Assembly: GCA_973895155.1 (NCBI GenBank)
Contig: OZ316893.1
Span: 3,950,490 to 4,014,489 of the forward strand
Source: Marsupella aquatica
Taxonomy: Eukaryota > Plantae > Marchantiophyta
DNA: 64,000 nt
Reading direction: 5' to 3'
Made by a program: the position numbers and the translations under genes. How positions within the stretch are numbered: position 1 is the stretch's first letter; the number at the start of each line of letters is the position of its first letter. The notes below the pieces were generated by a model that did no database searches, had not been told where the DNA came from, and saw only the letters and a list, made by a program, of their open reading frames with translations. Shown piece by piece: positions 5,798-58,148 of the stretch.

Positions 5798-8700
5798 AGA
5801 CAATAATGAGTGATGATGCTGAACAGTAGTGTTCTCAAGCATTAGTGAGATGGCCAGGGGGAGATGGCCAGGCACACATGCAGGGAGAGTGATGAGTAAT
5901 AAGTTGTGGCACCTTTAGATCTATCTCATGCTTAGGAAAAATGTCGTCAGAATCAAGATGTCACCATAATTGAATTACCAAGGAGGTTTCCTGACAGACT
6001 ACATTTAGACAATGAAATGAAAGAGGGGGGTTACATAATACAATGTTTATATTTCTGTACTCTGAACAGTATGTCTACTAAAGCTATACCTCACCTGAAG
6101 GATTCATATGAACTTTTCTTGCAGTCCTGACAATGCATCTTTTAGAGATGGAACATCATCTAGCATATAGACCAACTTGACGTCCTTCAGCACCACATTC
6201 TTACTGTCTAGATCTATCGATATTTAGAAGTGTCAATGATCAGTTTCAACAACCCCACTATTCCAAGAATATGTTATCGATCTAAGCATTTAGCCCGGAT
6301 TCGAGAAACCGCTCAACCCCGTGCTCAAAATTGTTTTGCCTTGGGGTGAAAATTTTCCAATTTTCTATCAGAACATTCAATCCTTCAGCAGATCAGTCAT
6401 CTGTCTATTGGAATGTTCTCAGCGCCTTGATTCGCAATCGATCACCGTGTTTGTAGCATGAAAGAAGTAGAAAGGTGAATTTCGGTGAAGCGACCTGCAG
6501 AGTATCGTGGAATCCCGGCAGCCCGAGTCCTGAAAGAAACGAGGGAAGGAAGCAGCAGAATTTGAACAAACGAGCTCGACTCGAAGTTATAATGACCGTC
6601 ATGGGTGGGGAAGACAGCGGAAGATTCCTCTGATCACATGGCCGAAGCCAAGCAGGCATCTGTGATCGGGCATGCATAGAGAGAGGACGGCAGAGGACTA
6701 CACTCATGAAGCAAAGAAGGACCTAATGCCGAAAAACGTGGAGTAAGTGTAATTAGTATTATAGAAGAGCACGGTGCAGCCAGCGACGATGTACACAACT
6801 TCCTGTATTCTACGAACTGTTTCTTGATAGATTTCCTTCTTTTGGGCTTTGGATTTCGAGGTGCAGTCACGAGTTTGGGGTCAGCCTTTAGATCGTCTGG
6901 CTGTACGATCACGGTGTAAAAGGGAATGTAATCAAATAACACTCTTGGATTGTGGGTAGATGTTCAAAGGACACTTTAGAGAAGAGCTTCGAAATTGACG
7001 AACTCGCAAAGGGTCTATAGAAGATCATTCGCACAATATCACGCTACCTTATTAGCGCTTGCACTGCTCGAATGGCAGGACAGAGTACGTGGCTGAAAGG
7101 CATTTCCAGTAACAATCAGCTCCAAACGGGATATCCGACAATAGAGCAATGTGGGCATTGGAGGATATGGGAGAATGACTCAGAGAAAGGATAACGATGC
7201 TCCAGAACTTTAGAAGACGTTTGATCTGCTCATAGAGCATCCCCAACACATAGAAGTTTGCACTCATTACATCGTTTGGGGAGGTCAATTATCAGCACAT
7301 TGGGAATCAGCGTGCAGGGTTTGTCAATGTCCATTCCAGCGCTAACAATGGGGATAAAAACTGGGGAATGCAGAGTAATCATGGAAGAATCTCAATAACG
7401 GTATGGCTTTCGATCGAGCTGAATGAGCAAACGAAAGCTCCTGACAATTGGACAACCGACAATTCGACAATTCGACAACCGACCGGGTTCGCTAATTGAA
7501 CCGACAGTTAGCCTTTCACTGATTGAGCATCACACTCCACTTTTAGTAATCGAACCGAAATTCACGGGTTTCATTGACTGAAAGAACATTTTATTCATTC
7601 CAAATCAGATGACCCTGTGTCCCTGTCGCCTGAAAATCACCTCGAACTTCCACTGCCCAATCCAAAAACTCGGATTGCAACGATTGGACCGAGCAGCAAC
7701 CACCGCGATCAAACGTCTATTGCAGGTGGGAGTGACCTTCTCGCACATAAAGATGGGTATGGGCTCGAAACATCTTTGGGAAGGCCTCCAGTACGGGTAC
7801 AGTCCTTTGGCTCTTCGGCACTCGGCAGTGTATAAATAAAATCAACTTTTAAGTACCGTACTTTGCCACACTAAAAGGATGTTACAGTGAACTCTGGATA
7901 AACTCACCAGACAAGGCTCACCAGACAAATCTGGCGTGCACTAAACCAGGTTATTCATGACTTGACAAGAGCCCATCCTGCTAAAAGTGCTCTAATAGAT
8001 AAGTGTGCTTAAATTTGGGATCCTTTGTTAAATGTGTAATTATCCAGGGTTTTGAATCCATGTAACCAACCAAAGCTAAACTCTCAATCCCTTAGCTATC
8101 TCAACAATGAATCCGTGGACCCTCATGTTATTTTAGAGGCAGTTACCTAGAAACTGAAGCCTAGATGGACCTCCAAATCTAAAGAAAAAAAATCAAAAAT
8201 GGACAAGTCAAAGTTATAGAACATTGGAAATTTATAATCTCCTTAGAAACTCAACTAAATCTATCAATGTTAAGTTCATTAAAAAGCTAAAGAAATTCTA
8301 AAATTCATAATCTCTTTAGTACTCGATAAAATCTGTCAATTTTAGGTTCACTCTCATGGAAGGGGTCGACATTTCATGGGTTATACAACAAACATTTCTA
8401 TTCACGTTAGAGATTATGAAATCATGGGTAAAATCTAATTTTCAAATTACTTACTCAATTCTTACCGAATGGTGTCAATGTTGAGCTCATCAGGACCGTC
8501 TCTTCAAGGTCTTTCCAATGTCATATTATATGTGAGTTTTCATTATGAAATGACTCAACAATGTCAAATCAAAAATTTCTGTTGGGAAAATTTTATGTTT
8601 TGAATAAAATCAAAATGTAAATAAAATCGTTACTGAGAGTTGTTTGCCTCAATCTTTTGATCTTTTGATTTGCATGTCAACTTTTTTTTACATTCTTTTT

Positions 8701-8846
8701 TACGGCATGGCGTCCCAGTTTTTACAGCAAAGTTACCACAAACACAAATACAGAAGTTAATTTTATCCAAAAACAAGTCTCTTATTGTTTTGCAGCATCC
8801 ATGATGATGTGGTGCACTGTGGACCCAGGAATTTTGGAAAGGACCC

Positions 8847-9167
8847 CTAATGGGGGTCCGTAATCAAATCCTCAGAAATTGTCACTTGAGCTTCCTGGGC
8901 AGTGAGGAACCAACAATACAAGATTTCTTCCAGATCTGGGCAAAGTGCACTACGATTTGGTTTGACTTCATTTGCAGTCACATTGGAAAGCAATGAGAAA
9001 GATTTTTTCAAGATTCTACCAACGGTAGTTTGATTTACCTTAGCGCCAAATGTTTCTGAAGCCCATTCAACTAGAGCTTTGTTTGTGAACTCTAGATGCT
9101 TTTGCTTGTGGTGACACATTTCTCTCTTATGCTTGTGAATTAGTGTTCTCACCTTCCTTTCCTCCAT
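8847..9167 (-). pseudogene. pogo-family transposase N-terminal fragment (CENP-B-like HTH domains), truncated
   Basis: MEERKVRTLIHKHKREMC...LVEWASETFGAKVNQTTVGRILK...PDLEEILYCWF...VTISEDLI resembles CENP-B/Tigger HTH1-HTH2. It is interrupted at a TA by an unrelated repeat, and no DDD domain is present. Confidence 0.8.
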
Positions 9168-9520
9168 GTTGATTCCACTTGACTACCCCAATGATTCACG
9201 AGCTACAATACCACAAGTTACAGTGCGCAGCAGTGTTCACATGTGCTATGGACCCCATAGTCAGCCTCGTACCTTGATCCCTGCCCTAATTCTTTGCCCA
9301 AACTCCTTAAGTGCATTATGTACTCTACTAATAATGGGCATGCCTTTATCAGTAAATGGCATTTCTGGATCGAGTTTATGCATTTACATATAAGCGCATT
9401 CAATCACTTATCCAGGGTAAGCGCTTAGAAAGTTGTCTTTAGCAAAATGATTTTAGCCCTTTGTGCGCTAAGAAAAAATGCTTAAAAACCACTTATCCCG
9501 TCTAAAAAAAAGGGAAGAAC

Positions 9521-9862
9521 AGTTAGATATTGCTCTAGTCTTGTGACTCATGAGCTAACTACAATTAGGCTAACTCGGGTTAGGACTTAGCTAATGTTAG
9601 CGGTAATGCTGTTGTGTATTAAGCCAGTGCTGATGCCAGACCTTGGTGGAACTTAGGCTCATTGTTACGGAGCTAGTTGAGAGATAGGGAGAGCTTGTGC
9701 TGTGGATGCTTGGTATGGCCGGTCGGCCTAGAGTGCAGTAAAGCTCTTGTGTGTTCCCGTGGACGTACCCTCATGTGGAGGTGAACCACGTATCTCTGTG
9801 TCGACTCTTGTACGTTGGATGGTTCATGGGCTTGCCGTTGCGAATGTCATCTATGCTCAACA
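9521..9862 (+). mobile_element. Ty1/copia solo LTR
   Basis: 342 bp flanked by 5-bp TSD AGAAC (9516-9520, 9863-9867). Ends ...CAACA and starts AGTTAG (probably a mutated TG). Shares agtaaagctcttgtgt.ttcccgtg.acgta...ggtgaacca.gtatctct with the 340-bp copia LTR at 52398-52737. Confidence 0.8.
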
Positions 9863-9904
9863 AGAACAAGATGGCATGCAATACCAAGGTAAGCGATTAT
9901 GGAG

Positions 9905-11364
9905 AGTCGCAGAACTCGACTACCTTAACACTTAGCTTTGGCATCGCTGACTCCGACGCCGAGCTCCCTTATGGTCCAGGCCCGGATAGGCCATCCGGGG
10001 AGGACTTAGCATGGGGAGACTTGTGAGCAATGAGACGTGGCACTGGCGAGGCAAGGGACCAAGCTGGGGACACACACTAAGGACTTGGACTAGCCTATGG
10101 CTGGTTGGGTCAAGGGGAAATGGGCCGGGCTCAAGGATGGCCGTCCGGACCATCGAATGGGCTTTGAGTTTTGAGGGCTTGGGGGTGAGCTCCTCTTGGG
10201 CCCAAGGCCAATGGAGTTGACGCCATTGGCAACGGACGCTTGGGGCGCAAGTTGTGGCCCAATCCGGGTTGGGCCGGTCGGGGGCCCCGAGCGGCGATCA
10301 GACCTGAGGGCCTGGGCATGAGCACTGGGTCGGCCTGGTCACAACGGGCTAAGGCACTCCGCTTGTGGATGCCTATCAAGAAAGTTATGGGCGTTGCCAG
10401 TTGGTGGCGTGCCCATTATGCGCGATGGGATCCGGGTTGGGGGCCAAATGTTTAGGGACCAAAGCTGGTCCGGGGGTGGCAGGTCCCCATAAGCATATAT
10501 GAGGGGAGTGGTGTCTCCCTGGGGGCTAAGGGCGAGCCGAAGTCGTGAGCCGCGGCGGTAGCGGCACTAAGGAAAACCGTCAAACGGAAATGGCGATATC
10601 TTGAGGAGGGCTACGCTCTCTTGAGCTCAGTTGGGTCTGGAGGTGCCATGGGTTCTCATGGTTTGCGGGTGTTAGCTCGCCCGTTTGCCAAATCCTGCCG
10701 AACAGCAGCCAAGCTGCGTACAGCCTTCCAAGGGAGCTTGCATTGGGGAGGCAAGGCCAAGTAGGTATGGAGGCTGAGTCCCAAGGGCGCTCGGTCCCTA
10801 GACCATCAGTGGGGCGAACCGGGAGTCGGTGTTAGAGTCGGGGCCGTGCTGGTCCCCGCGTGTTGAGACAAGCTTGGGACAAGCTTTAGGACAAGCTACG
10901 CTATTTGGGCCATGAGCATGTCCTGAGGTCAGGGCGGTCAGTTGGTGATGGATAGGTACGAGGGGGAACCCGGGCTGCACCCAAGGGAGGAGCTGTCCTG
11001 GACGAACAGTGGGTGTGGGTTCTGGTTCCAGCTTATGGCATTGGGAGGACCTATCGCTGACCTATTTACCAACCTCTGTTGAGCTGAGTTAGGATGCTAG
11101 ACTTGGCGAGTTCTAGATCCGGAGGGGTTACTTACCGAGGTGTTTGGTTGCTTGTGCAGACAGTGAGGACCGTTGAGTAGCGGTCGTGTAGGTGAGCAAG
11201 TGCAGCTTCATATGGGAGTGGCCGCAGAGGGTGCTAGAGGCACTTGGGTGCTAGAGGCACTTGGGTGCTTGCTCGAGGTATTCTATTGAGGTGTTCGGGT
11301 ACCAAGGGCACTTAGGCGCAAGTGCTGGGACTGGTGAGGGCACTGGGTGGCGAAGTCCACCACT
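9905..11364 (+). repeat. 5' LTR of gypsy element
   Basis: Direct repeat of 17061-18571; begins AGTCGC and ends CCACCACT. Lacks a ~50-bp segment present in the 3' LTR at ~17757-17806. Confidence 0.93.
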
Positions 11365-11366
11365 TG

Positions 11367-11378
11367 TGGTATCAGAGC
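11367..11378 (+). other. Primer-binding site (initiator tRNA-Met)
   Basis: TGGTATCAGAGC, 2 nt after the 5' LTR end; the canonical plant iMet PBS. Confidence 0.93.
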
Positions 11379-11644
11379 GATTGCCAGCATAGACACCGGG
11401 CCGGGGCCGTGCTAAGTCGGAATCCAAAAATCTTAACGGATTTTTTCGGGGACTTAGTGCTTCAACGTGCCCGACGGGTCGACTGCGGGCAGATTCGGTC
11501 GCTGGGAACAGGGCAAAAAACACTTGTGCAAAGAGTGGCAAGCAGGCTCCCCCCACCAAGGGGAGAGCCCAAGTTCACGACGAACAGAAGGAGGACGGGT
11601 CGACTTCCCTGGACGAATGTTACAAGCAAGACAAAGAAGACGCA

Positions 11645-14600
11645 ATGGCCGAACCGTCGACCGCTGCGGCAAACAAGTCAAGTGCAGAGCACCGTCAACT
11701 TAAAGGGAAGGAGGCGGTTGATCCTTCAGAGGATGGGTCGAATGACGATGACTTTGACGCAACCGCAAGTGATGACGACGCTGAAGCTGAGACAGAGGAA
11801 GAGGGTCAGGACCCGGAAGAGGAACTGATCCCAGCCTTGAGAAGGTTGAATGCGGAACCAGAAGATGATGCCAAACCGGACATCATCGTGGATAATTTGA
11901 CCAAGCAGAACCAGGATGACGCGGGTGATACCTCAGTCCTGGGAGGTCATGGTGCTCGTAAGACGCGGGGGGTGTCACCAAAATCCACAAGAGAACCTAA
12001 GGACAAGCGGCCCGCAAAGGAAAGACGGTTGGAGGACCGTCCTCATACAACCCGCAAGGGCCCGGCCGCTGACGACGGTCTGGGTCCGTTGACTCAAGAC
12101 CAACGACTCATTTATGAGCAGTTGGAACACAACAAGGGGGCCCAGATTAAGTACTTACTTACTCTAGGTAGTCAGAGTGCGTCACGTCTGGGTAGTTGGA
12201 CGGAGTATGTTCCAAGTGAACCAGCTACCGACTCCTCCAACTTACAATGGGGCCTACGAGCAAAGTGGACAAAAGTTCCTAAGTTGGCTCTCCATGATGG
12301 AGATTCATCTCCAAGCGTGTGTTGAGCCTCCACTTGGGCTACCGCAACCGCTCCTTACCTGAAGGACTATGCCTTGACTTGGTACAAGTCATTGAAGAAG
12401 TCGCGAGAGGACTCCTCCTTGCCGTTAACTTGGGAAAACCTGGTTGAGGATCTCCGTGCTTATGTCACCACTAAGTACCCGGAGCGGCACGCTCAAAAAT
12501 GCGTAACGGAGATGAGTTTCAAGGGTGATATCCAAAAGTTCATCACTTATTACCAGAATCAGTTGGCGTGTATCCCAGCGAGACAAGAGACCCTACATAC
12601 ACAGCTTCACAACTTTATCGTGAAGCTCCCGCCGTTGCTCAGGGAAAAGTTGCAGGAAAAGCGTCATGAGTTCAAAACGCTTTCTGACGCCTTTGACAAG
12701 GCCACTACGTTGGTGAATAACCGACCGGACTTGGCGAAGGTGGGTGGCAAGGGATCCGAGGGGGAAGCTGGGAAAGCAAAAGGTCCCGGGAATAAGCGTA
12801 AGCAACTTGAGGGGGCGGGGGCCGGTGGTTCGGACCCCCAGCCCCAGAATGGAGAAGCTAAGCGAAACCGGAAGGCCAACAACTTTAAGAAAGGAGCCTC
12901 ATCGGCACAGAAAGCAAAGAAGCAGGCGACCATGGAGCAGAGGCGGGCTGAAGGTTCGTGCTTCACATGTGGCGCCATGGGCCATCAAAGTAAGGATTGT
13001 TTCACGAAAGGTGGCAAGCCAAATAGAGATGGTGGAGGGCAGAAGAGCATTAAGGTAAGTATCGCTCTAACTGAACCCTTAGTAGCTGACAAGGTCCCTG
13101 TAGGGGATGTCCCTGACGGTGAGAGGGTGTTGTTGCGAGAGATACCTAAAGTTAAGACAATGGATCCTAAAAAACTGATTTTTGTGAATGTCACTTCTAA
13201 CGGTAATCTGGGTGTTGCTTTGGTGGATACAGGCGCGACCGCCTGCTTCATAAGTGGGCAGGCGGCAGCTCGTCTTGGGGTGGACGTGCAAGAGTTGTTA
13301 CAACCGTTAGTGTGCAAGTTCGCCAACGACACGAAGGGGATAGTGTCAAAAGTAGTGCATAGACTTCGGGTAGAGGTCATAGGCGAACAACAAAATTTTG
13401 TTAGTCAGGAGATGTTCTACGTTCTAGATGGTCTAGCCGTAGACTTCATTTTGTCGGTAGGTTATCTCAGAAAGCACAATGTTACCTTGAAACCGGGGGG
13501 TGAGGTGCTCCATTTTCCCAATAAGGGCGGTGAGCCCATCGTTGTACACGAAATTACCAAAAATAAAGAAAGATTTCTTAAAGTAAGTAAAGTGTCGTGG
13601 ATGTCTCCGTGTGTATCGGCGAAGCAATGGTGGAAAGACTTCAAGGGTGGACATGAATGTTTCTTCTTTCACCTCCACCCAACTAAGGAGGCTGCGTCGC
13701 AGCCAAAGGTCAAGTCAGCTACGGTCGGGCCCGACTGCGGTCAAATTCCTGAAATTTTAGAGGAATTCAACGACGTGCTCTCGCAAAAGCTACCTAAAGG
13801 TTTACCCCACGGAGAGAAGTGGATCACCAAGTTGAGTTGGAGTCGGGATTGGCCCCTCAGGCTAAAGCTCCTTATCGTCTGAACCTGAACGAGCGAATGA
13901 TGTTGAAGAACGCCTTGGAAGAGTTGATCGACCAAGGGTTCATTCGCCCTAGTAAGAGTCCTTACGGGGCGCCCGCGCTGTTTGTGTCCAAAAAGGATGG
14001 TACATTGAGATTGTGCGCAGATTACCGGGCCCTCAATAAGCAGACGGTAAAGAACAAGTACCCGTTACCTCATATGGATGACCTCTTCGATTGCCTCTCC
14101 GGGGCTAAGAAGTTTTCAAAGGTGGACTTGTGGTCTGGGTATTACCAGATCCGCATGGCTAAGGGAGACGAGTATAAGACCGCGATGCGCACAAGGTTTG
14201 GATCCTATGAGTTTTTGGTTATGCCATTCGGGTTGTGTAATGCAACCGCAACGTTCATGAAGATGATGAATACCATCTTTCATGACTTGTTGGACCAAGG
14301 AGTGGTCGTCCTTATTGACGACATCCTAATCTACTCGCGTGAAAACGTTGGAGGAGCATGAGCAATTGCTCAGAGAAGTGTTCTCTTGCCTTCGTAAGGC
14401 CCGTCTCTTTGCTAAACCTAGCAAGTGCGAGTTTGCGATGAATGAGATTCAATTCCTCGACCATACCTTTACCTCGGAAGGGATTACGCCTAGTCAAGAC
14501 AAGCTTAAGGAGATCAAAGAATGGGAGCATCCGTCCAATGTAAGGCAAGTTAGAGCCTTCTTAGGATTTATGGGGTTCTATCGGAGATACATGAAAGACT

Positions 14601-16576
14601 ATGCAAGGATTGCGAGGCCCCTAAATGCGCTAACGTTGAAGAACAAAGTGATTGTGTGGACACAGGATTGTGAGTTAGCATTCCTAGAACTTAAGCGGTT
14701 AATGATAACACCGCCAGTTCTAAAGTAACCTGAGATGGGGAAGCCGTTCGAGATTTGGACAGACGCAAGTGATTATGCCATTGGCGCCTGTCTTCACCAA
14801 GATGGGCGTCCTGTGGCCTTCGAGTCATGTAAGTTGGAAAATCATTGGATCACGCCAGAAAGGGAAATGTATGTTATGATCTACGCGTTGAAGAAGTGGG
14901 AGATTTACCTTAAGAACGGTCCCAAAGTGGTAATTCACACAGATAGCTCGCCGGCGGGGTACTTCAGTTCTAAGCCAAGGCTGAACCCCAAGGAAATGAG
15001 TTGGCACATGTTCTTGGTGGATTTTGATTTCGAAGTCCGCCACGTTCCAGGGAAGACAAATACGGCAGCGGACGCGTTATCACGTAAGGACCAACAACGT
15101 GTCAATGGGATTACGATGCTCAAATCCGAGTGGCCAAAGGTTCTGGCCACGGCGTATGGGGATGATAGGTTAGCTAAGGATTGGCAGAGCAATGGGGGTA
15201 GCCGGGGCAAGGTAAGGCACGTATCGTTGGGGTTGGATACAACGCATAATGTCCAGTTATGGCAATACAAGTAGAGGCGTGTGTACATACCAGAGTCTCT
15301 AAGGTTAGAGGTTCTGCAAAAGTACCACGACTCGCCCTGGGGAGGGCACGGAGGACAAGCCGCCACGTATCGCAGCATGTCGCGAGATATGTATTGGCCG
15401 GACATGAAGCAATCGGTCCTTCAACACGTGCAAAGTTGTTACTCGTGCCGAAAGAACCAAACGGTCTATAGGGCAAAAGGAGGACTGTTGCAACCCTTAC
15501 CAGTAGCTGCGGCTCCATGGGAGTCTATCTCCATGGACTTCATTGTTGGATTACCTGAGTCCCACGGCAATAACTCCATCTTAACAATCGTGGATCGTTT
15601 TTCCAAGATGGCGTATTTCTTGCCTACTACGAAGATGGTTTCGGCCCGAGAGGTTACCGGTCTAGTATTTGACAATGTCTTCCGACAGTGGGGATTGCCG
15701 TTGCATATCCTGTCCGATTGCGATACCAAGTTCACGGGCCATTTTTGGAAGGCATTGTTCCGTTTATCCGGAACGGACCTGACTAGGGGATCAGCGTATC
15801 ATCATGAGACAGATGGCCAAACAGAACGGGTTAATGGTATTGTGGAGGACTACTTGCGTCACTTTGTGACAGCCAATCAGAAGGATTGGGCGAAGCATTT
15901 AACAATGGCCGAGTTTAGGTATAACTCGACCAAGCATTCGGCGATGGGCTTTGCGCCGTTTGTGTTGGTCACAGGGAGGACGCCAAGGGCGCCCTCCTGG
16001 TTTATAAATCCGGAAGCTTGGCGGACGGAAAGCAAGGTTCCTTCTGTGGACGATTTTGTTCAAGAGCTGCGCCTAGTTGTGAAAGCGGCTACCAAGGGTA
16101 TGACCCTTGCCCAAAGTCGGTACAAGGAGCAAGGGGATAAACATCGACGCCAGGTAAGCTTTGAAATTGGGGAGAGCGTCTGGTTGCAGTTGAGACCTGA
16201 GCAATACCACGGGAACGTAAGTAGGAAGCTGGCTCCCAAATATGCAAGGCCCTATCGCATCATACGATGGGCCCACAAGGATAATCCGGTTTCGGTGGTG
16301 TTGGAGACACTCAAGGAAATGGGCGTGGGCAAAAGCTACCATGTTAGCCGGCTCAAGAAGTTTGTCAAAGACAATGATCCCAACCGGGATCAGGTCTTCC
16401 GCCCGGACGCCATGCTGGTGGAGGACGCTGAGGAGTTTGAGGTGGAGGCAATTCTGGACCACCATTACAAACGCAAGTTGGGAAGGCAAATCTTAGAGTA
16501 TTTGGTGAAGTGGGCTGGCTACGACCAGGCCGAGAGTACTTGGGAACCGGAAGAAAATTTGGGTAATGCCTCATAG
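11645..16576 (+). pseudogene. gag-pol polyprotein with frameshifts and stops
   Basis: Zinc knuckle CFTCGAMGHQSKDC; protease ALVDTGA; [22 protein letters not shown]; RNase H WTDASDYAIGA; integrase HDSPWGGH...CYSC, SMDFI, TERVN; chromodomain FEVEAILDH...YLVKWAGY...STWEPEENL. Frameshifts near 12225, 12335, 13810 and 14340; stops at 14726 and 15272. Confidence 0.95.
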
Positions 16577-17046
16577 ATCCTTGGAAGCTATCGTAAGCGA
16601 AGCGGCCTACCGCCGTTGTGAACTGGTACAAGCAACTGTAGCTACCTTTGTGAGTTGTATCCTAGTTTCACTCCTCTTGACCTCTTAAGGATAAAGTCAA
16701 ATTGCGTTGGTACTAGAGGTTGTTGGGCGGCCGATTTGCTTTTTGCGAGTGGAAGTTGATGGTGCCCGCCCTACATCTGTGGGCGGGCTAGTTCGAACCA
16801 AAGGGGAGTGCCCCAAGGTGAGGACAATGGGACTGACGAGTTTGGAGTTAGCTTACCCGTTTGGACTAGCATCCTACTTGGATAAGTGGGATAGGTTGGA
16901 ATTTCCTAAGTTTGGAATGCGCATACCAACCTGGTTTGCATCAGCCTTATGGGCAAACCATTTGTTACCTCATAAAAAATTTTAAGGCCAAAAGTGGTCT
17001 AGGCGTGTTGGAACGTTTACTTAGGTCACGCGGACGTGACCATTTT

Positions 17047-17056
17047 GAAGGGGGGG
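17047..17056 (+). other. Polypurine tract
   Basis: GAAGGGGGGG just upstream of the 3' LTR. Confidence 0.85.
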
Positions 17057-17060
17057 TGCA

Positions 17061-18571
17061 AGTCGCGGAACTCGACTACCTTAACACTTAACTCCGGCGT
17101 CGCTGACTCCGACGCCGAGCTCCCTTATGGTCCAGGCCCGGATAGGCCATCCGGGGAGGACTTAGCATGGGGAGACTTGTGAGCAATGAGACGTGGCACT
17201 GGCGAGGCAAGGGGCCAAGCTGGGGACACACACTAAGGACTTGGACTAGCCTATGGCTGGTTGGGTCAAGGGGAAATGGGCCGGGCTCAAGGATGGCCGT
17301 CCGGACCGTCGGATGGGCTTTGAGTTTTGAGGGCTTGGGGGTGAGCTCCTCTTGGGCCCAAGGCCAATGGAGTTGACGCCATTGGCAACGGACGCTTGGG
17401 GCGCAAGTTGTGGCCCGATCCGGGTTGGGCCGGTCGGGGGCCCCGAGCGGCGATCAGACCTGAGGGCCTGGGCATGAGCACTGGGTCGGCCTGGTCACAA
17501 CGGGCTAAGGCACTCCGCTTGCGGATGCCTATCAAGAAAGTTATGGGCGTTGCCAGTTGGTGGCGTGCCCATTATGCGCGATGGGATCCGGGTTGGGGGC
17601 CAAATGTTTAGGGACCAAAACTGGTCCGGGGGTGGCAGGTCCCCATAAGCATATATGAGGGAGTGTTGTCTCCCTGGGGGCTAAGGGCGAGCCGAAGTCG
17701 TGAGCCGCGGCGGTCGCGACACTAAAGAAAACGCTAAACGAAAATGGCGATATCTTCCCAACAGGAAGTCCATTGGAGGACTTCTTAGGTGCGTTGGAAA
17801 GCTTTTAAGGAGGGCTACGCCCTCCTGAGCTCAGTTGGGTCTGGAGGTGCCATGGGTTCTTGTAGTTTGCGGGTGTTAGCTCGCCCGTTTGCCAAATCCT
17901 GCCGAACAGCAGCCAAGCTGCGTACAACCTCCCAAGGGAGCTTGCGTTGGGGAGGCAAGGCCAAGTAGGTATGGAGGCTGAGTCCCAAGGGTGCTCGGTC
18001 CCTAGACCATCAATGGGGCAAACCGGGAATTGGTGTTAGAGTCGGGGCCGTGCTGGTCCCGGCGTGTTGAGACAAGCTTGGGACAAGCTTTAGGACAAGC
18101 TACGCTATTTGGGCCATGAGCATGTCCTGAGGTCAGGGCGGTCAGTTGGTGATGGATAGGTACGAGGGGGAACCCGGGCTACGCCCAAGGAAGGAGCTGT
18201 CCTGGACGGACAGTGGGCGTGGGTTCTGGTTCCGGCTTATGGCATCGGGAGGACCTATCGCTGACCTATTTACCAACGTCTGTTGAGCTTGAGTTAGGAT
18301 GCTAGACTTGGCGAGTTCTAGATCCGGAGGGGTTACTTACCGAGGTGTTTGGTTGCTTGTGCAGACAGTGAGGACCGTTGAGTAGCGGTCGTGTAGGTGA
18401 GCAAGTGTGGCTTCGTATGGGAGTGGCCACAGAGGGTGCTAGAGGCACTAGAGGGTGCTAGAGGCACTTGGGTGCTTGCTCGAGGTATTCCGTTGAGGCG
18501 TTCGGGCACCAAGGGCACTTAGGCGCAAGTGCTGGGACTGGTGAGGGCGCTGGGTGGCGAAGTCCACCACT
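17061..18571 (+). repeat. 3' LTR of gypsy element
   Basis: Direct repeat of 9905-11364, differing mostly by transitions; AGT...ACT termini. Confidence 0.93.
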
Positions 18572-21420
18572 TGGAGTGTGCATTTATCCAGAGTTCACTA
18601 TACTTTGCCACACCAAAGATATTCTAATTGACACACCAAAGATATTCTAATTGACACGTATGCCACAACTTTTATGAATAAATATGCCACTGTTTTGTAT
18701 ATGGCCAATGGAGAAGTATATATAGTAGCCTGATTACCTCTTCCTTGAACTTAAATACAATTGAAAAAAAATTGAAAAAAAAATTGAAAAAAAACTATAC
18801 TCTTTTCCATTATCTTTGCATACATAATTTGTTTTTTTACTTTTTTAAATTTGTCTTATTCAGAGTCATTATACATTTTTTCCTTATTTGAGTTAAGGTC
18901 TAGAGGCTTCACTCTAGACCATAGCCCAAGCTTCACTCTAAACAGTACCCCTTAGAAGTAGCTTTTGTTTGCGAGTATATAATGAGATGCCAATGGTACT
19001 GGTAAGTGTATAAATAAATCAACTTTTAAGTACAGTACTTTTGCCACACTAAAAGGATGTTACTTCGCCACACCAAATATAATCTAATTCACAATTATGC
19101 CACAATTTTTATTAATAAATATGCCATTGATGGCTTTGTATATGGCCAATATATACAAGAGAGTCTTAGATGACGGGACACCTTTTCCCTATTTTGTCAA
19201 AAAATAAATAAATATATATATATATATATGCCAATGGAGAGATATATATGAGAGTCTTATATGGCCGGACATCTTCTCCCTATCTTGTCTTATGAAAAGA
19301 GATAGTTAAGTATTTTTATATACATATGGTCTAGTCTAGACTTTCACTTAATTTGTATTAATTTGAATTTAGCTATTGCTCTTACCCGTCTAATCTTCCA
19401 AGTCCTTAGTTTTTATTAGATATGTTAGAAATATATATTTTATTAGATATGTTAGAAATATATATTCATATACTAAATATATATACCCTATACTAAAAGT
19501 AAAATACAAATTAGCTTATTTCTCTTTCAATCACAAATAATATACCCCTAAGGTACACTGACTTGGATATTCAATTTAATGTACTTGTTTGTCAGTAAGG
19601 TACCTCTCCTCACTTTAAAGGTGTTTTTATTTACGGACCCCACTAGAGGTCCCTTCCAAACTTCCTGGCACCACAGCGTGTCATGTTAACAACAACCGCA
19701 ACAAACAAGACTTATCAGTTTTGTGAATCAAACTTATAGTTTTCATTCGTGTTTGTGTTAATTGGGTGTAAGTTTTGGGACGCCATGCCGTAAAAAGAAA
19801 AATAAAAAATTAGAAATGCAAAGAGCAAGATGGTTAAAACTGTCACTATGTAACCGTTTAAATAGTTACATTTCCAATTTTAAAACTTAAATTTAAAGAT
19901 TTAAAAAATATTTTTTATATAACAAATAATGATTAATAACTAACTTGATAACTTCCTTGTTAAAGGGTAATTGGCACCTGGTGTAAGAATTCCGGCCCTT
20001 TGCAATTAAGGTACACTGCTAGCCATGGTCCGAACTTGAACTCAACGAACTGATACAATTCATTTATCAGATATTTATCTAATTGCAAATGGACTTGCCA
20101 CAGATTGAATTCTGACTCGTAGTTTGAGAATTTGGTAGCATGTAGCAAAAAGGCCTGATTTTGACAACTGCTTCTGATAACCATGCTGTCAATTAGCCAA
20201 GGGGTCCACAAACTAATTATTTTACCTTTTAGAATCATTGTTTCAACACATTTGAATACAATGGGATAGCTTTTATTTCATAAACTAGTTAAACTTATCA
20301 GTACTCTAAATCGAGTAAAATGGAATGTATTATCAATAAACTAAAATAGCATGGTCTTAGAACGGGCCAGCTATATGTCCAACGAGTTCATCAATTTTAC
20401 AAGAGGGAGTATATATATTACTGTGGTATACTTATTAAATGTACTGAAAACAGTGACAATATTGTAAATTTAAACTTCTCTAGTGGCAATGTAATTAAGC
20501 TGATAAATAAATAAATTGATGCTAGAATTGGGCATCTCCAACCTCAAAATTTCCATGCCCAGAAGTTTGGGACATCACCAATAGAGCAACTCAAATGTCT
20601 TTGTTTTGACTCTGCTAGCTCATGGTCACATCAGTTTCCCTGGAACTAAACTGGCAGACTCAAATAGGTGATTTACCACTTGCAAAAATTTTCACTGAGG
20701 GCATCCACAAAAAGGTACAGCCAAAGGCATTAAAATTTCAGCCCCAGTCACGGTATTGGGCAGGAGCTGACCACTAGCCTGTTCACTGGGGTCATGGGAC
20801 CTCGTGCTGGGATAATGGCCCAAGTCAAGTAAGCCTAGTTTGCTTGCCTCGAGTCCAAAAGGTTTCACTCCAACCATTTCAAACCAACTGCCCATTGCTC
20901 ATTCACCAACTAACTTTTAAATATTGGCCCCTTAAATATGCAGCCAATTCTCAAATCAAGCTTGCATTCCCCTTTGATTAGTTTTTTGCATCCACCCTCT
21001 CAGAAGCATGGACGACCAGCTAACAAGAAACCATGGAGGATACCGATATCAGCAGAGCCCCCTTCCTACCTCAGTTTCATCAGCAACTGCCACAATGATA
21101 GCGCTTGAATTGTTTCATTCAGCAGCTGTTATTGAAACCCAGGCAGGCACTGAAAGATACACATGGTTTGCTCTAAGTCAAAAGTTGATCATTTTTACTC
21201 TCAAATTATAATCTGGCAATAAAGATACACAGACAGTCCCAAATTTCCCAAATTCTCTGGTGAGTGGAGGATAGTTAGCACAAACCCACAATGAACCGGT
21301 TCAGAACCAACTTGGGTCAGTTTAGTCACATAGAAAGCAACCAACAGTGGGGCGAGAAACTCTTTTGGTGTGGAGTGAACTCAGGGAGGGGGAGCGGGTA
21401 CGCAACTCTTGTACAATAGG

Positions 21421-21656: not shown

Positions 21657-23019
21657 TATTAAAAAAAAGTAATATACTTTGGTTTTGATAAACTTTTTAT
21701 GCATCAAAACATCTTAGGGGTTTGTTTTAGTTACATTTTTGGATTCTTTGAGTTGAGAGGTACAAGACTTTAGTAAACTAAATAAAATCTAAGATGGTCT
21801 AAGGATATAAGCCAGGTCATTATAAGGAATTAAAAACTTGCTTTCTAAAAAGGGAGTTGCATGGGGGGGGGGGGGTCATTTTCACAAAAGTGGCACTTCA
21901 CGTGTGCCGAAGCATAGGCCTATTTGAATGGGTGTGGCAGAAGACTGGTCTTAGGGTATCTTTTATTAACTGGTGGGCTTTAAAGAACACATAGGCCTAT
22001 TTCATTGTAAAAAATATTTTCTTTAAAGCTTTTAGGGGTTATTTAGTAAAAAATAATGACCAAATTTAAAGAAACAAAAACTTTTGGAAAAAAATATTTT
22101 TCACTTATAAGTTAAGGGGGGTCAAATCCTAAAACATCACACGCGATGTATGACCCTCCATATAGTGACCCCCCGCCCCTTCCCCCCTAGGGAGTGAGTG
22201 GGAAAAAGGTTTCAACTCAGGATTAAGGATTTCTTCAAGATCATAGGTACTACAAGCATGTGGAGGGTGATGATTGATTAGAAATGGCTTCAATCAGAGA
22301 GTGAGCTTTTGAAGTGGATGTAATTTAGGACTAAGGAAATTAGGTCTGATCCCAAGTTAGAGCAAATCTTTGGTGAAAGTCAGGACCTACTTTAATTACG
22401 GACATCTTTAATGCCATAGAATAACATTTTCTCTCTGTTTCATAAATCCTCTTAAAAAACTTTATATAAATCAGTGTTTTACATAAAAACATTGAGAATA
22501 TTACTAAAATATGCACTGAAATATTTTCCCCAGTTTTGCAAAACACTCACCTAAAATTTTGAGCCCAAGAAATTTTTTTCTAGAATGAAAGTTCAGTATT
22601 ATCATGGGCCCTGAAGTGCCCCCCAAAAGTAGTGTCAAAACCTTATTGTCACAAAGAGTATAATCTTGATAGGGCCCCGCAATGGACCCAATACTAGTGT
22701 CAGAGCTTATTGTCACCCAAAAACTAGGGTTGGAGCTTATTGTCACTAGCCTCATTATTTATTCTTGCGTAGCTTTGGCTACAGAATAGGTTTTTAATTT
22801 TTTGAAAGAACCTGATCATCCTTTGGAGGGGCGCCTCAAAGCTTCAAAGTAGCGTGTGATGATCTTTTGCTGTCAACAAATGGCCATAGCTTTTTCATAG
22901 GTGTTAAAGGTGTTTTGGGCTTTTTTTCACAAGCCTCTACAATAACTCATGGTCATGGTATATGATCAATCCTAGCTTTGAATTTGGCATTGCCCTGTTT
23001 TGTCCATAAGTTAAAAGGC

Positions 23020-23290
23020 CCATCAAATTTTGAGTTTTGAAACACCCTACTATTAAGCTTCTGCCACTGGACTCGCTATTTATTTGACCCCATCAAATTT
23101 TGAGGTTTGAGACACCCTACTCTTTAGCGCCGGTCGTAGGACTCGTTATTTATTTGACTCCATACTAAGCTACTTTCCATCAAATTTTGAGGACACCTCG
23201 TACTGTAATAGCTTTGGTCACCGGACTCGTTATTTATTTGACCCTCTACTTTAATAGCTTTGCTCACAGGACTCTTTATTTATTTTTTGG
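23020..23290. repeat. Degenerate ~70-bp tandem repeat
   Basis: catcaaattttgag...caccctact...ggactcgttatttatttgac repeated 3-4 times. Confidence 0.75.
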
Positions 23291-23498
23291 ACAAACCTGA
23301 TAAAACCTGATAGTCTCTACTGTAATAGTATATATCACAATGCCCAAGGGCAAAAAATGTCAAACTGGGAGACATGATCCCAATGGCAAAGCAATTCAAT
23401 GAATTGAGGGGAGGAAAAGAGGGGAAAGGGCCCCAAGATAAACAATCCAAGGGGTCCCCAACCAAAAGCCAACGAAGGAACAAAGACAAAAAAGTAAG

Positions 23499-23683
23499 CA
23501 ACAAAGGAGCCGTGAAGGCTAACACCCTATTGAGCAGAGAACTGAAAAGCCTGACATTGCTCCGGAGTAAACTGCATAAGAGGGACAAAAAATAACCAAC
23601 AAGGAGCCGTGAAGACTAACACCCTACTGAGCGGAGAAATGAAAAGCCTGACATTGCTCCAGAGTAAACTGCATAGGAGGGTC
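23499..23683. repeat. ~97-bp tandem duplication
   Basis: aaggagccgtgaag.ctaacacccta.tgagc.gaga..tgaaaagcctgacattgctcc.gagtaaactgcata occurs twice; a 20-bp ggaaaaaaggccatcagctg repeat follows at ~23780-23836. Confidence 0.8.
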
Positions 23684-24385
23684 ACAAAGCGAAAACAGCG
23701 GGGAGGCCCTAAAACCAACTGCCTCATCTTTACAAAGGAGTGTGAAAACCTGGGCCATCAAGAGCCACGGACACCTGTTGAGGAAAAAAGGCCATCAGCT
23801 GTGGAAAAAAGGCCATCAGCTGTGGAAAAAAGGCCATGAAGACAGAAAAAACGGAAAGGCCTCCTTAGTGCTTCTTGAGTGATAGTGAGACAGGCAGGCC
23901 TCCTGAATGATAGTGATAGTGATACTGAGTGGCTGTCAACTACCTCTCAGGAAAGCAATTCTCTCGCTGTCATCTACAGCAGGAATCGTCTCAGGGAAAA
24001 TAGTACTGTACAGCAGGAGGGGCATCAGGCATCCTGATCTTCATCACCCAATTTGGTCAGGGCCTGGGTCGCAAAGCAACGCGTCTGAATTTGTTTTGTC
24101 ATCCGGATAGAGAACTTTTCCAATTGTCGCCTCTGTAAAGATTGTGAAGTAGGAGAGTCATCTGGCATCCCGATCTTCGTCAACCAAATTGGGCAGGATC
24201 TGGGTCACAAATGCATTCCAATTTGTTCTGCTCATCCGCAATCACAGAGCATCTACCGTTACTGATGTGCGCAGGAGCAGAGCTGGAATAGGGAGCTTGA
24301 TATCGGATTTTTTCATGAACCTTGCTTCCTTTTAGGAAGATTTGAGCAGTTCGGATTCCAATCCATTCCTGGCCGCCTCGGCATT

Positions 24386-27300
24386 ATGTACCCACAGCCT
24401 TGTGGTTCACGATTGAAGGACGTTGTAGTGATTTCCCTGGTTTTGATCGTTGGCTTGTTTGCCGTCGACAGCTTTTTGTATCCGGTTTTACCCAGCGTGC
24501 GTCAATATGCGTTTCCTTCCGCATCTTCAAGTTCGGGAGAGTCGAGTGTGGAAGAAGGCTTTCCAGACGGTGTTCTTGGCCACTGGAATCCACCGCCGGC
24601 ATTTCTGGAAGAATCGGAGGAAGAACCAGGCGTCGTTTATCGGAATGCTTTGTGGAAACCTGAAATTGGGCACTGGCTTTTGCAGTGCGGTGCAGCTCCG
24701 ATGATTTCCGTTTCTGAGGTAGGTAATTTATCTCTTGCAGATTTTTATGGGAACAATTACACAAAACCTTCTTGGTCACTGTTCAGAAACGTCGCTCTTA
24801 CTCATTTCGTCTGAAAGGTATGAGTGACAAGTTTTGCTCTTTCCAATGTTGTCGAGCTTGGTCGATCGCACCCATCCTGAATTAATCTGAAACAGCGTTT
24901 GTACAGTAACGAGTGCGACAATGGCTGCGGTGGACGGGGTGTTTGCAATCGTCATCTTGCCGAGTGCCGATGCTTTCACGGGTTTAAAGGTATGTGCAAA
25001 ATCTGCGTCTCAAACTCACATTTATTTTCTTGCCAATGTCGGCTTTTGTTGCGACTTGTTAACTGTGGTTGAATATGCACATAGTTTTGTGCAATCCGAG
25101 AGCTAGCATTAGTTCATAATTTCCTTAAAAGATGTACGCTAGATACGATGGTCATACAAGTTTCTCCACCCACTCCAGCGATATTTCTTGCACGGACGTC
25201 GTCGCTGGCTACTGGCCTCCCTTTACAGTGGTATCTTGTCACGGTTAGCTCTTCCGTTCATTGATCTTAATTGACCAATTCGTGCATGTCATGTCATGTG
25301 AGTGTCAACATTAGTTGTGACTTTTAAAAATCTCTTTACAAAAATTCAAACTCTTGTTCAGGTAGGTATCCGGAGCAGTTCCCCTAATTTTGCTTTCTAG
25401 TTACTAAGCGACCCGACTAGCAAGGTAGTTCCTGCCGTCCCCTCTTTGAGGTATTTCGCAGGGAGGTCATGGTGTATGTGGGTTGCGTGTTTCATCACAG
25501 GGAATTCAGGTGTGAAAAAAATGAATGCTAAAGTCGAGACTGCGATGTCTGGCAGGGAAGGGATGCGAACGGGAGGAAGAGTTTCCATGTACGATTGCCG
25601 AAACAGTTTGGAGGGTATCGACTTGCGGCGCTACCTGCGATAAGAAAAAGGCGTTCTGTTATTGTGGCGAGGGCACAAAGTATCCTCAACGCCCAGTTGC
25701 GGAGAGTTGCGGATTCGTTCGGAAGTAAGTTCTTGGAGATTTTCATGGTGCAAGCACGTACATCCTACCTAGGTGTCTGTTAGGGCCTTCCTACGGCATC
25801 TGGGGCACGCGCCTCCTTGCCTGAGGGGACAGAAAACTAAGAAGTAGTTGTAGTACTATCAGCTTACAATTGGCTCTGGTTGTACAGAAACGGGGCGGTG
25901 GACTGGAAGACCCCTGATCCACTGATTTTCGCCAATACCAGTGGAAAGGATGGCCGCGGGTGGTGCAACCTGGATCCTCACGTTATCAGTCCTCGGAAAA
26001 TGGACTGTTTTTGTACCTACGATGGCACTGGCGGAAGGTTTTGCGATGTGCCTGTGGAAAGTGTGTGCATCAATCAGTGTTCCGGAAATGGACAATGTCG
26101 AGGTGGATTTTGTGCCGTAAGTTCCCTGCCAACCAATGTACCTAGGAAAGCTCGATTTCGTATATAATTATGTCATTTATTGTGGCGTGCAGGAAATGAA
26201 TGAGACTGGTGTTTTACAGTGAGGCTGAAAGGCAGGGGAAGTCATCAGTCAATATGATGAGTGCATCTTTAGGGCAGACTGTGACCGATGAATCCCAACT
26301 CCCCAAGTCCTGAACCCAGGCACTACTGTAGAATCTTTTCGGTACCCCCTCGATTGAAAGGATTGTTTATAATGAAGATTGATTGATTGACAACACTGTA
26401 AGCTTAAAGTAAGAATTGACCTCCATTGCAGCACAATTAGTGTCTAAGGTATCATTACTTGACCTCCATTGCAGCACAATTAGTGTCTAAGGTGTAATTG
26501 CTTGAGCTCCATTGCAGCACAATTAGTGTTTACTTGTATCATTGCTGGACATCATTCTTCGAGTTCAGTGAGGATTAATATGTTGTTTGTAGTGCAACTG
26601 TGCAAAGGCCACGCAATGAACCTAAGTTACCTTTCCGTATTTTCCTCATAACAGGGCAGACAGAGTGGTCCTCAAGCCCTATTGTGCAAGGAATCAGCTT
26701 GGCGTTACCGTACAGATTTTGCAAGACAGAGCCTGAGTCGTCGTAAAGTCCTGTCCTGTGCACACAGAGTAGGGCAAATAAAAGAACCTTGTTCCAGGTA
26801 GTCCAGTAACATTAGAGGCAGGTTATCCTGCCTCACTAGGATAATGTGTTCTTCCGGCTTCTGTCTTTCATTTGCCTTCCACCGTCACCATGACCGTGGA
26901 CCTTTTTCTTAGTTTAGGATAGAAATTGTCGGTACCAATCACTGTTGGAAACATTACAAATGTTTGTTACTGGGCCCATCCGCGAGGAAAACCAGCACAC
27001 TAGAGAAGGTCTTGATGCCAATTACAGCAGCCATAGCCAAGTTTACTGACAATCGCATTTCGAGCTGTCGACGATTATAATAAGAACTTGCATTTTCTTC
27101 CCTAACTAAAGAATGAAAGTTGATCCCGTGGAAGTCTGTACTCCTCTGATCTCAAAGCAGTTTAAAGATCGTCGAGGCAAATATTGTGATGTACGCATAT
27201 TCACATTGTTTTCAGAGTTCCAACTGCTGAAGATTCTGCAGTAGGAATCCCATGTGTCCATGCTATGGATAAATAAACTTTTGATCGTACCCTAGGTATA

Positions 27301-31534: not shown

Positions 31535-34469
31535 CTTCCTCCAAGGCCAGACCATGGAACCGCTGTTGTAAATTACAAAGCTAGAGATGCGAGATTCTTT
31601 GTATCGATATCTATAAGAACATGGTCGGCCTTTGTTTTTGTACAGATCAGTCTTTTTCCAGGTTTCCTCGAGCTTAGGGCAACCATACACGTAGAAGGAA
31701 GAGTTTAATCAATGCCAAATGATTTGGCAATAGAGACAGACTCAGAGACAAGGGTTCGATCAAAAGCTGGCGCGCTGGACTTCTACTGCATTCGACTTTG
31801 TATAGATTAAAATTGAGATGATTCCCATGGTGGTGCAATCAGATGCATTGTACTTGCATTTTTGGCCCATCTGTTCAAATAAGGTTTTTTGGAAAATGCG
31901 ACTATCAGACCATGGTATAAATATGCAGGGAAAACGGGTAGGTTTGGGACCTTGGATTCTAAGTTGCAGTACTTTTCCTTCCTTCTGGATGGATAGTTGA
32001 AAGTGTGAGCAGAATTTCTGTACTTGTTATCAACTAAATGTGTTGTCTGAAAGGTCGTATGAAAAACTGACGTGCCATTAAACCCCTCTTGAGATATTCT
32101 CGTATGTAAATGCCCAAAAGCTTTAAACACGTTAGAACGTATGTTTTCTTCAACCAGTCTCTGAATGCTAGACTTATGGACACTATAGCAGTCTCCTCGT
32201 GACGTCAAGTCCGAACCCGGCCATCGCTAAGTCCTCTCAACCCCAATTCTTGCCCCATTGGCATTCCCTTACCACTCGTTCACTGGTGTTTACAGCCAAG
32301 GACTTTGGAATCTGATAAGCATGCAAGTGTCAACCTGTCCTGTAGGCCACTGCAAAACATTCGATCTCCAATTTTTAAATCTTGGCCATGGGAGCTATCC
32401 TGGCATCTCAGCTTGAAGGTTTGATGGAGACTCCATTTGAGCTTATGACACTATTTAATGTGCTTTTTTAATGGGATGTGAGAAGTCGTTCACCTAGAGC
32501 GATTTGTACCTACTCATGATAACCCATGTTCACGCATTGCAATAACTGCACATCACCATATCCATAGAAGGAATAGCATTCAATGATAAAAACGAGCATG
32601 TTTGTCATGGTATGGAAAATATGTTCAGCTTGTGGGCACGCGCATGTCCAACAGTTAACCACATGTTGTTACTATTTGATGTGCATTTACCAGAACCTTG
32701 TCTTCACCATTAAAGAACTGTCATCTTGTCAGTTTTGAGGCCTTGACCTCGGTAATTCATCGTCACAAGTATTTTGAAATTAATAGTATTTTAAGTTTTA
32801 GTCTATGTTGGAAAATCATTCCTTTGTGTGTAGGTCCATGTGAAATTGGATGGCAAGTTTTTTTTTATCATTTTTAAACCTTTCAGATCACCCCTTCAGA
32901 CTATTCGTAGAACTTTTCCTTATTGGAAAAGTTTGTTATTTTCTCCTGTAGTAAACTAAGAGGACAGTTATTCTATCTTAATGAGCTGAATTAAATGAAT
33001 CAATGTTCTTCGTTCTTACTGATGACAATGATATAAAGTTACATTCATTAATGTTTAAGTTGCAAAAGCAACAGTAAGCGTTGTCCATGGAACTAGTATC
33101 AATTAACTCTGCCTGCACCTAAAAGTCACAATTAATGCCGAGTGAACAGCTGAGGAGTTGTCTTCCTAGCAGAGCCAATTGAATATCTATTTTCATTTTT
33201 TGTCGTTGCACGACATAATATTGGAAATTGGACATTGTGATTGAATATTCATTTTGTGTTTGAATTTTGTATTTTTTGTATTCAATGTGAAAACAGTTTA
33301 GGGTCAAAACTTAAACACGTCCAAGGCATTAGAGTTCAAGTGTCTTTTTGTCACATGACCCAACAGTTTTCATTTTCAAACATGAGGCCATGGCGCTCTG
33401 TGTAGGGCAAGACTTACGTGAATAATTATTTTTAAAATCTTAACAGAACTTCAAACGTATCATAGTGGTGTGCATGGTCATCGGGAACAACCTTGGAAAG
33501 GAAAGTCATGATGCTATCATGTGTTATTCTTATCTAATTTCAATTCAATCATTGATGTGACATGAAAATTCTCTCAATTGATTACCTACAGTAGATTGCA
33601 GGCACATTCATTCAATCCAAGCCAATATATGCCATGAGTTGCTATTTTCATCCAATGCTTACACTATTTGAGCTGATATCCAAATTGGTTTGTGTACCTT
33701 TACTTTAATGGAGAGGTATAGTCAAGGGACTCCAAATGCAACTTTGTCTCTTAAGGGACCAAAAGATGAATATTTTTCCCAATGGACCTCCGGGCACACC
33801 AAAGGTACCATTTAGTGCCAGACATTCTATAACCCAGTTTTAAGTTCTTATGAGGTGAGAAAGTCACTATAAAACACAGGATTGTTGTTGAGTGTCTCAT
33901 TGCCTTGCCAAATCGTTTGACTACAACCGCAATGTCAAGTGAATCGTTTGTCGTGCCGTTGCGAGAGCACAATGCAAAGCGTTGGAGTTTGAACTTGGAT
34001 ACATTGAACTCAATATATACACATAGTTAAAGGGCTAGAGTTTAGGGAAAACCGCAGCTTAGGCGTGTAAAATCAAAATGAACACATGCATCTTAAAGAA
34101 AATAAAATACATTATGCAAAATATATTAAGTCTAAGATCCGCCAAATTGCAAACATAAACTTGGACTGGCCCAATGATAATTTCTGGCCGCTCCTTTATT
34201 ATAGTTTGCATATCTTAAAGGGTAGCCATAGGTGAGAACACGAGCAAGAACACAAGTAGGAAAAACAAGAACAAGCGACACTGACAATAAAATGTTGAGA
34301 AATGAAAATAAGCGCAATGTGAGCAAAACAGGTTTCATAAAAGAAGGGCACATTTGAATTTGAATTTTTATTAACTTTTTTATATAATATTCATATTGTC
34401 TTCAAAAAACCAATGAGTTTGGGATGATATGGTGCTTGCATGCTTCAATGCAGCCGTAAACTCTTTCTT

Positions 34470-34740
34470 TGTAGTTTGGATACAATAGCCACAATGTATT
34501 CAACCAAGTTGGGAGGTGGCGCTATAAGCTTTGGTACTCCGATGCGGTCGTTAGATCTTTCATTAATTTGTAGTTTGAATACATTAACCACAATGTATTT
34601 GACCAAGTTGGGAGGCCTCGCTCCTATGCTTGGGTGCTCCAATTCAATATAAGATCCTTCATTTCTAGTTTGAATACAATAGTCACAGTATATCCAAACA
34701 AGCAAGGAGGCCATTGTGCTTTGGCACTCGGGTGCTTCAT
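34470..34740. repeat. Degenerate ~97-bp tandem repeat x3
   Basis: tagtttg.ataca.ta.ccaca.tgtatt..accaagttgggagg recurs at ~34472, ~34571 and ~34666. Confidence 0.7.
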
Positions 34741-34942: not shown

Positions 34943-35343
34943 AGTCCCAAAACTCAACTACCCTACCACTTACCTCCGGAACGGCCATCCATTGGAGACT
35001 AACTATGGGGAGACTAGACAATGGGCAATGAAGCATTGCATTAGTAAAGGCAATGCACTAAGCTGGTGGCGCACGCTAAGGACTTAGAGTAGCATTGGGA
35101 GGTGTTTGGGTATGGGAAGGGCCAAGCTTAGGTTGGACTGGTCAGACCCTTGCTTTGAGTTTTGAGAGCTTGAGTGGGAGCTCCTCTTGGGCCCAAAGCC
35201 AAAGAACTTTACTTTATGCGCAACAGACACTTTATGCGCAGGTCTATCCTTCAGGGACCCTCGACTGACAACTGGTTTCGAGACCTTGAGCATGAGCACT
35301 AGGTCAGCCTGATCATACTGGGCTAATTTACTTCACTTATGGG
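34943..35343 (+). mobile_element. Diverged, truncated LTR fragment of the same gypsy family
   Basis: Collinear with the first ~460 bp of the LTR at 9905/17061 (ggccatcc, atggggagact, ctaaggactt, gctttgagttttgag, gagctcctcttgggccca, catgagcact). It also begins AGTC. Confidence 0.8.
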
Positions 35344-58140: not shown

Positions 58141-58148
58141 GATATTTG

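Follow-up and report, generated by a model that had tools for sequence, protein, structure and literature searches.

For retroviral-type integrases, the terminal CA of long terminal repeats (LTRs) counts as invariant, and TGT...ACA is regarded as the general LTR end signal (PMC3601003). The Galahad elements of Selaginella (SM1- and SM2-Galahad), chromoviruses of the Galadriel clade, are 7-9 kb long and possess LTRs around or above 1 kb, a tRNA-Met primer-binding site (PBS), a target-site duplication (TSD) of 5 bp, a CCHC knuckle and a group I chromodomain (PMC3350952, PMC6317226). Their ends are TG...CA, reading TGT...ACA in SM2-Galahad (PMC3350952). We analyzed a 64,000-nucleotide stretch of contig OZ316893.1 filed under Marsupella aquatica (hereafter the window), which contains an 8,667-bp Ty3/gypsy chromovirus at 9905-18571 (LTR to LTR, TSD excluded). 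This element resembles Galahad in all of the above features but differs in its ends, which are AGT...ACT. Comparison with contigs of public runs confirmed these ends and showed, with near certainty, that they are family-wide. The element belongs to a many-copy chromovirus family with AGT...ACT ends, a plant family that breaks the CA rule.

The sequence-only reading, made earlier from the letters of the window, had pointed to insect errantiviruses as the known exception, and AGT/AnT termini are indeed documented for the gypsy, ZAM and Idefix subgroups of Drosophila errantiviruses (PMC5408687, PMC3601003). In contrast to these viruses, the liverwort element carries a chromodomain, and an env was not seen in it. 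Further, errantiviruses have specific insertion targets (ZAM at CGCGCg; PMC2527525), whereas the flanks of the family copies show no strong target motif. We infer that the likeness of the ends reflects convergence, the trees described below having contained no errantivirus. The Tcn1 clade likewise comprises non-seed-plant chromoviruses with a group I chromodomain, but those are mostly self-priming (83%) and end in TG...CA (PMC2864245, PMC6317226), whereas the liverwort element is not of the self-priming type and has a tRNA-Met-type PBS at 11367.

In plants, elements with non-CA 3' ends, CT included, are known to be transposition-competent; examples of non-canonical ends are Tos17 (TG..GA), soybean Gypsy (TG..CT) and lotus Copia (TGCT and TACT) elements (bioRxiv 137141, PMC9804982). 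Such elements are mostly short-LTR Copia with mostly non-palindromic ends that are always T-initial (bioRxiv 137141, PMC9804982), whereas the liverwort element is a Gypsy element with 1.5-kb LTRs and A-initial ends that form a perfect inverted repeat. In both plant surveys the first T never varies: it was the only invariable terminal base in a scan of 50 plant genomes (bioRxiv 137141), and in the lotus curation, where TG...CT is the most frequent non-canonical end, the first base is always T and Table S3 is T-initial throughout (PMC9804982). No report of a plant AG...CT element was found in the literature searched, a search that had most subscription papers and Repbase outside it. The earlier claim that the ends are atypical for plant chromoviruses holds for the 5'-A, that is, for CT at both ends, and this is the new part; CT-3' ends were already known.

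Ends of the window copy and of other copies

The 5' LTR (9905-11364, plus strand, 1460 bp) and the 3' LTR (17061-18571, plus strand, 1511 bp) both start with AGTCGC (9905 and 17061) and finish with CCACCACT (11364 and 18571). They are 96.5% identical (1407 of 1458 aligned columns; 46 transitions and 5 transversions; Kimura two-parameter distance 0.036). The repeat scan identified the TSD as TGGAG, which is exact on both sides (9900-9904 and 18572-18576, no strand) and abuts AGT...ACT. The junction after the 5' LTR reads ACT|TG-TGGTATCAGAGC, comprising a 2-nt TG spacer (11365-11366, plus strand) and the PBS TGGTATCAGAGC (11367-11378, plus strand), which we take to be of the initiator tRNA-Met type. 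The junction upstream of the 3' LTR reads GAAGGGGGGG-TGCA|AGT, comprising the polypurine tract (PPT; 17047-17056, plus strand) and the four bases TGCA between its G-run and the LTR (17057-17060, plus strand). The resulting inverted repeat, CAAGT...ACTTG, is exactly 5 bp long, and its sixth base mismatches. The LTR coordinates, TGGAG flanks, internal junctions and inverted repeat given by the sequence-only reading were all confirmed in this way.

A single copy leaves an ambiguity: the TSD opens with TG, and there is a CA 2 nt in from the right end (18568-18569) as well as a TG 4 nt before the 3' LTR begins. Further, the LTR-to-LTR identity overruns by two bases, to 11366/18573, because TGGAG begins with TG. 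These features would suit a canonical TG...CA element with shifted boundaries, a TGGAG repeat that arose by chance, or an artefact of assembly. When starts at 9890-9920 were scanned against ends at 18555-18589 for exact 4-6-bp repeats, ten were found, and only TGGAG at 9905/18571 was both at least 5 bp long and on the LTR-identity boundary. No TG...CA pair near the boundaries had an exact 4-6-bp repeat; the sole TG...CA alternative up to about 25 bp away falls beyond the LTR identity, and its 4-bp repeat contains one mismatch. Four-bp TSDs at 9904/18571 or 9908/18573 were ruled out by the LTR identity and the breakpoints of other copies. Once the ends are fixed independently from other copies, the chance of a 5-bp TSD match is approximately 4e-4.

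Other copies of the family were sought in contigs of four public runs (X2-X5, of five listed, leaving aside X1 with a share of 0.11; two studies, two organism labels), with which we compared the regions 9780-11480 (5' side) and 18515-18650 (3' side). The counts of loose ends given here are of the matches listed: 24 on the 5' side, where far more exist (2367), and 24 on the 3' side, where there are 55 more. Contigs with unrelated flanks directly ahead of 9905 numbered 61 in X4 and 50 in X5 (at least 111 in total), which sets the start of the 5' LTR; the median lengths of these flanks were 170 and 255 letters, respectively, and their mutual agreement was 0.35-0.36. On the 3' side, unrelated flanks started after 18571 in 15, 8, 21 and 22 contigs of X2-X5 (66 in total; agreement 0.37-0.48), which sets the end of the 3' LTR, and 24 of the 32 pieces listed stopped there. 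Other breaks on this side were at 18572 (3 and 1 contigs), 18575 (3) and 18573 (7, 10 and 4); those at 18573 in X2 and X4 run into the PBS, as 5' LTRs should, and the same PBS therefore follows the LTR in other copies. Twelve joints with intervening letters were listed (a further 176 joints fell outside the listing), and two of the twelve, each from X2, re-entered the LTR at 9905. The sequence-only reading had named TG...CA ends in other copies as the observation that would count against it, and a break at the internal CA (18569) was seen in just one of the contigs listed, so that this refutation does not hold. As a control of the method, all four runs showed the adjacent repeat described below to break at 9862, its CA end.

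The 3' junction of the window copy itself recurred unchanged in a contig of X2 and in one of X5, which belong to two studies; one of these runs may be the source of the window DNA itself. Given this junction, the breaks of other copies at 9905 and 18571, and the scan for TG...CA pairs, shifted boundaries or an artefact are hardly credible. Neither the window copy nor the other copies have canonical 5'-TG...CA-3' termini, and the AGT...ACT ends noticed in the sequence-only reading are real.

Three observations weigh against this conclusion. Position 9905 was absent from the six matches listed for X2 and X3. The 5-bp TSD is established in the window copy alone, as the contigs never pair both flanks of another copy. 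Further, among the matches listed no empty site accompanies the flanks of other copies; these matches are a small part of all, hence the lack of an empty insertion site or a 2-LTR junction among them is no evidence.

A proposed model of cDNA end processing

The sequence-only reading proposed that the integrase removes TG and joins a CT-3'OH. We inferred the cut lengths from the spacer geometry at the internal junctions. Minus-strand synthesis begins at the base adjoining the PBS. Priming by tRNA-Met would copy the TG spacer first and give a right cDNA end of ...ACT-TG, and PPT cleavage after ...GGGTG would give a left cDNA end of CA-AGT..., the two forming the symmetric 5-bp inverted repeat. 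Removal of TG from both 3' ends would then expose ...ACT-OH for joining to host DNA, and a 5-bp staggered cut of the target would produce the 5-bp duplication. The TG spacer would have to be removed from the U5 end because it is copied from the PBS-adjacent start yet is absent from integrated right ends; one extra U5 base would be removed if the final tRNA base escapes RNase H. Symmetric removal of TG is the simplest model because the CA before AGT complements the TG spacer; such a match between both predicted overhangs has a chance of 1 in 16. Taken as a whole, a model in which the integrase trims 2 nt per cDNA end and joins a CT-3'OH in place of a CA-3'OH is, in our judgement, quite probable.

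Two points count against these cut lengths. The G-run ends 4 nt before the 3' LTR, so that the U3 overhang could be all of TGCA rather than CA, and the model was built from integrated sequences. In an asymmetric process the plus strand would start after the G-run and the TGCA-AGT U3 end would lose 4 nt, and/or a retained tRNA base would lead to a 3-nt cut at U5. The pure purine run does stop at 17056, four bases short of the LTR; retroviral integrases take off di- or trinucleotides (PMC3395085), and asymmetric processing is known in retroviruses (PMC3395085, PMC6784120). However, the complementarity of CA|AGT to ACT|TG extends over exactly 5 bp. Further, a CA-3'OH would be available at a blunt TGCA end, but the flanks ahead of 9905 share no TGCA (agreement 0.35); copies beginning with TGCA would have shown as agreement, and the disagreement indicates that they do not begin so. 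We therefore regard asymmetric processing as unlikely and prefer symmetric TG removal, for which the spacer geometry speaks, while a 3-nt U5 or a 4-nt U3 cut retains that small probability.

AGT...ACT corresponds to TGT...ACA with the outer base pair exchanged and the penultimate C:G pair kept. The ends were likely derived from an ancestral TGT...ACA by a swap of the outer pair, probably through a TG...CT intermediate.

Integrase loop, lineage and host

The active-site loop of the window integrase reads YHHETDGQTER, in which His177 (15803-15805) replaces a conserved Pro. The aligned loops are NHPQTDGQSER in Ty3 and YHPQSSGKVER in prototype foamy virus (PFV), with PFV Pro214 aligned to His177, so that the family has HHE where HPQ is usual. 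In the Pro column of the integrase alignment, all 10 family rows had His, all 3 rows of the sister group had Ser, and 125 of the 127 others had Pro (one row deleted at this column was excluded). The Gln-to-Glu change in the same loop was dropped as a family marker, Glu being present in 22 of the 127 other rows. In PFV, the strands of the end are split by Pro214-Gly218 (PMC6784120), with the scissile dinucleotide running over Pro214 (PMC3395085); the loop change thus sits where the trimmed end passes in PFV. Judged from the alignment, Pro-to-His is a candidate co-adaptation to the changed ends, and close natural relatives make end recognition testable. The comparison of integrase residues suggested by the sequence-only reading yielded a clade-wide change whose bearing on the ends is conjectural.

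That the loop is tied to a genuine change of end preference we put forward only tentatively. The base contacts at Pro214 of PFV are merely van der Waals (PMC3395085), the integrase of Rous sarcoma virus has Ser at this position yet uses CA ends (PMC7955051), the loop changed once, on a single branch of the tree, and the Pro column is one of seven clade-specific columns flagged. The ends could instead be real without any new preference, if the integrase cuts at a fixed distance and tolerates any base after C; AGT...ACT would then have drifted to fixation and the loop would be incidental. The Rous sarcoma virus integrase fits this explanation too, as do the loss of Pro in the sister group and the clustering of plant elements with differing ends on an integrase tree (PMC9804982). 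The complementary change at both ends and the perfect inverted repeat in many copies suggest selection instead, and the unused CA at 18568-18569 with its single break fits distance cutting and CT preference alike. We give cutting without preference somewhat less than an even chance. The earlier claim of an altered end specificity accordingly stands insofar as CT is used family-wide, and this use could be mere tolerance.

A broader proposal would be that a bryophyte chromovirus lineage, comprising the His- and Ser-loop integrases, moved from CA to CT recognition via loss of the Pro and so converged on errantivirus ends. We consider this possible but rather doubtful; termini are known for the LTR family itself only, the Ser-loop sister group and the Calypogeia copies having been judged by protein. 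Scans with the integrase alignment for DNA of relatives detected none in viral contigs and none in metagenome contigs. Two loci (L006 and L007, one per further scan) had 32% identity, fell outside the clade and were set aside, and five metagenome loci with the LTR-end/PBS pattern, which resembled neither the element nor its proteins, were taken as chance matches. If the lineage-wide switch is true, it would provide a natural enzyme pair for finding what enforces the 'invariant' CA, and an abundant lineage would be missing from plant catalogues owing to TG...CA filters. REXdb was assembled from TG/CA elements alone (PMC6317226), and intact elements of the family in liverwort genomes would be counted too low by pipelines of the REXdb or LTR_retriever type that demand TG...CA or T-initial motifs.

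The integrase-core tree contained 141 rows, namely the window and those of 240 proteins that covered at least 150 residues. The window integrase grouped with plant and other chromoviruses, and the family formed one clade with the three-row sister group (Shimodaira-Hasegawa-like support 0.99). This clade joined a group with angiosperm elements at a support of only 0.89, in a tree that included no named Galadriel reference; the chromodomains of those angiosperm elements fit the published Galadriel motif (PMC3350952). A quick Pol tree (23 rows, an unbroken natural relative as guide, no named references) gave a support of 99 to a similar group, which holds one Galadriel-motif relative and leaves out a Tekay-like Lolium row. 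The tRNA-Met PBS, TSD, size and chromodomain fit Galadriel/Galahad (4-5-bp TSD, 4.8-12.5 kb) but not Tcn1; they also fit Reina, Tekay and CRM, and are therefore non-diagnostic. The lineage appears to lie near Galadriel/Galahad and may belong to that clade.

The best named match of the integrase was from the leafy liverwort Calypogeia fissa (80%), and reverse transcriptase matches from this species were 86-91% identical. The window also contains a dirigent-protein gene in a single frame (55343-55990, minus strand), whose best named match is again from Calypogeia fissa (72%) and whose homologues contain PF03018. Because the integrase and the dirigent gene share this best named match, the host is likely a land plant, specifically a leafy liverwort. 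The designation of the element as a plant chromovirus in the sequence-only reading agrees with its chromodomain and with this land-plant setting.

Coding region and neighbouring sequences

Between the LTRs, the domain order with the PBS and PPT is protease, reverse transcriptase, RNase H, then integrase, that of a Ty3/gypsy chromovirus, and profile matches were obtained for the zinc knuckle, protease, reverse transcriptase, RNase H, integrase and chromodomain. On the plus strand, gag (CCHC zinc knuckle) with the aspartic protease occupies 11393-13882 and has an in-frame stop at 12323-12325. The reverse transcriptase (13798-14728) is in two pieces in different frames with a stop at its end, and RNase H (14729-15274) also has a stop at its end. 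The integrase (H2C2 finger, core, SH3-like) with its group I chromodomain (15275-16576) has a stop within the chromodomain tail. Because of these stops (12323, 14726, 15272 and 16574) and frame changes (around 13800-13880 and 14330-14360) in gag-pol, the window copy is decayed and likely dead. Unbroken relatives exist with a single 1672-aa gag-pol frame. The chromodomain lies at the integrase C-terminus (PF00385, E 1.6e-14), and its aromatic-cage positions are F/W/Y in the window copy and Y/W/Y in relatives. No env was found as a third open reading frame (ORF); the gap between integrase and 3' LTR is shorter than 500 bp and contains no ORF longer than 96 aa.

Three retrotransposon proteins (P0241, P0150 and P0022) and locus L006 are filed as Acinetobacter, Saccharimonadales, Corynebacterium and a Bacteroidota metagenome-assembled genome; these bacterial labels likely reflect eukaryotic contamination of those assemblies. 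Within the window, a fragment at 34976-35342 shares 70% identity with the LTR's first 460 bases and has no recognisable ends.

Directly upstream of the element, a 342-bp solo-LTR-like repeat (9521-9862) lies between exact AGAAC repeats (9516-9520 and 9863-9867). It reads AGTT...AACA, as against TGTT...AACA in a 75%-identical piece near 52300-52700 (minus strand). For this repeat, 64-131 loose flanks per run back the 3' boundary, and the 5' base may be a private mutation. Inverted arms at 8669-8863 and 19631-19822, 72% alike, enclose both LTR items, and an ORF at 8847-9182 (minus strand) encodes a piece of an ABP1/CENP-B-type helix-turn-helix (PF18107, E 1e-5). The arms and this piece likely stem from an old pogo-like DNA transposon into which both LTR items inserted.

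A second pair of long direct repeats (50866-52218 and 58143-59823) is about 90% identical and 7.3 kb apart; a tRNA-Met PBS was not found beside it. Further, short tandem arrays, built of 43- to 99-bp units, are present at 23019-23688, 26416-26544, 34468-34717 and 56628-57045.

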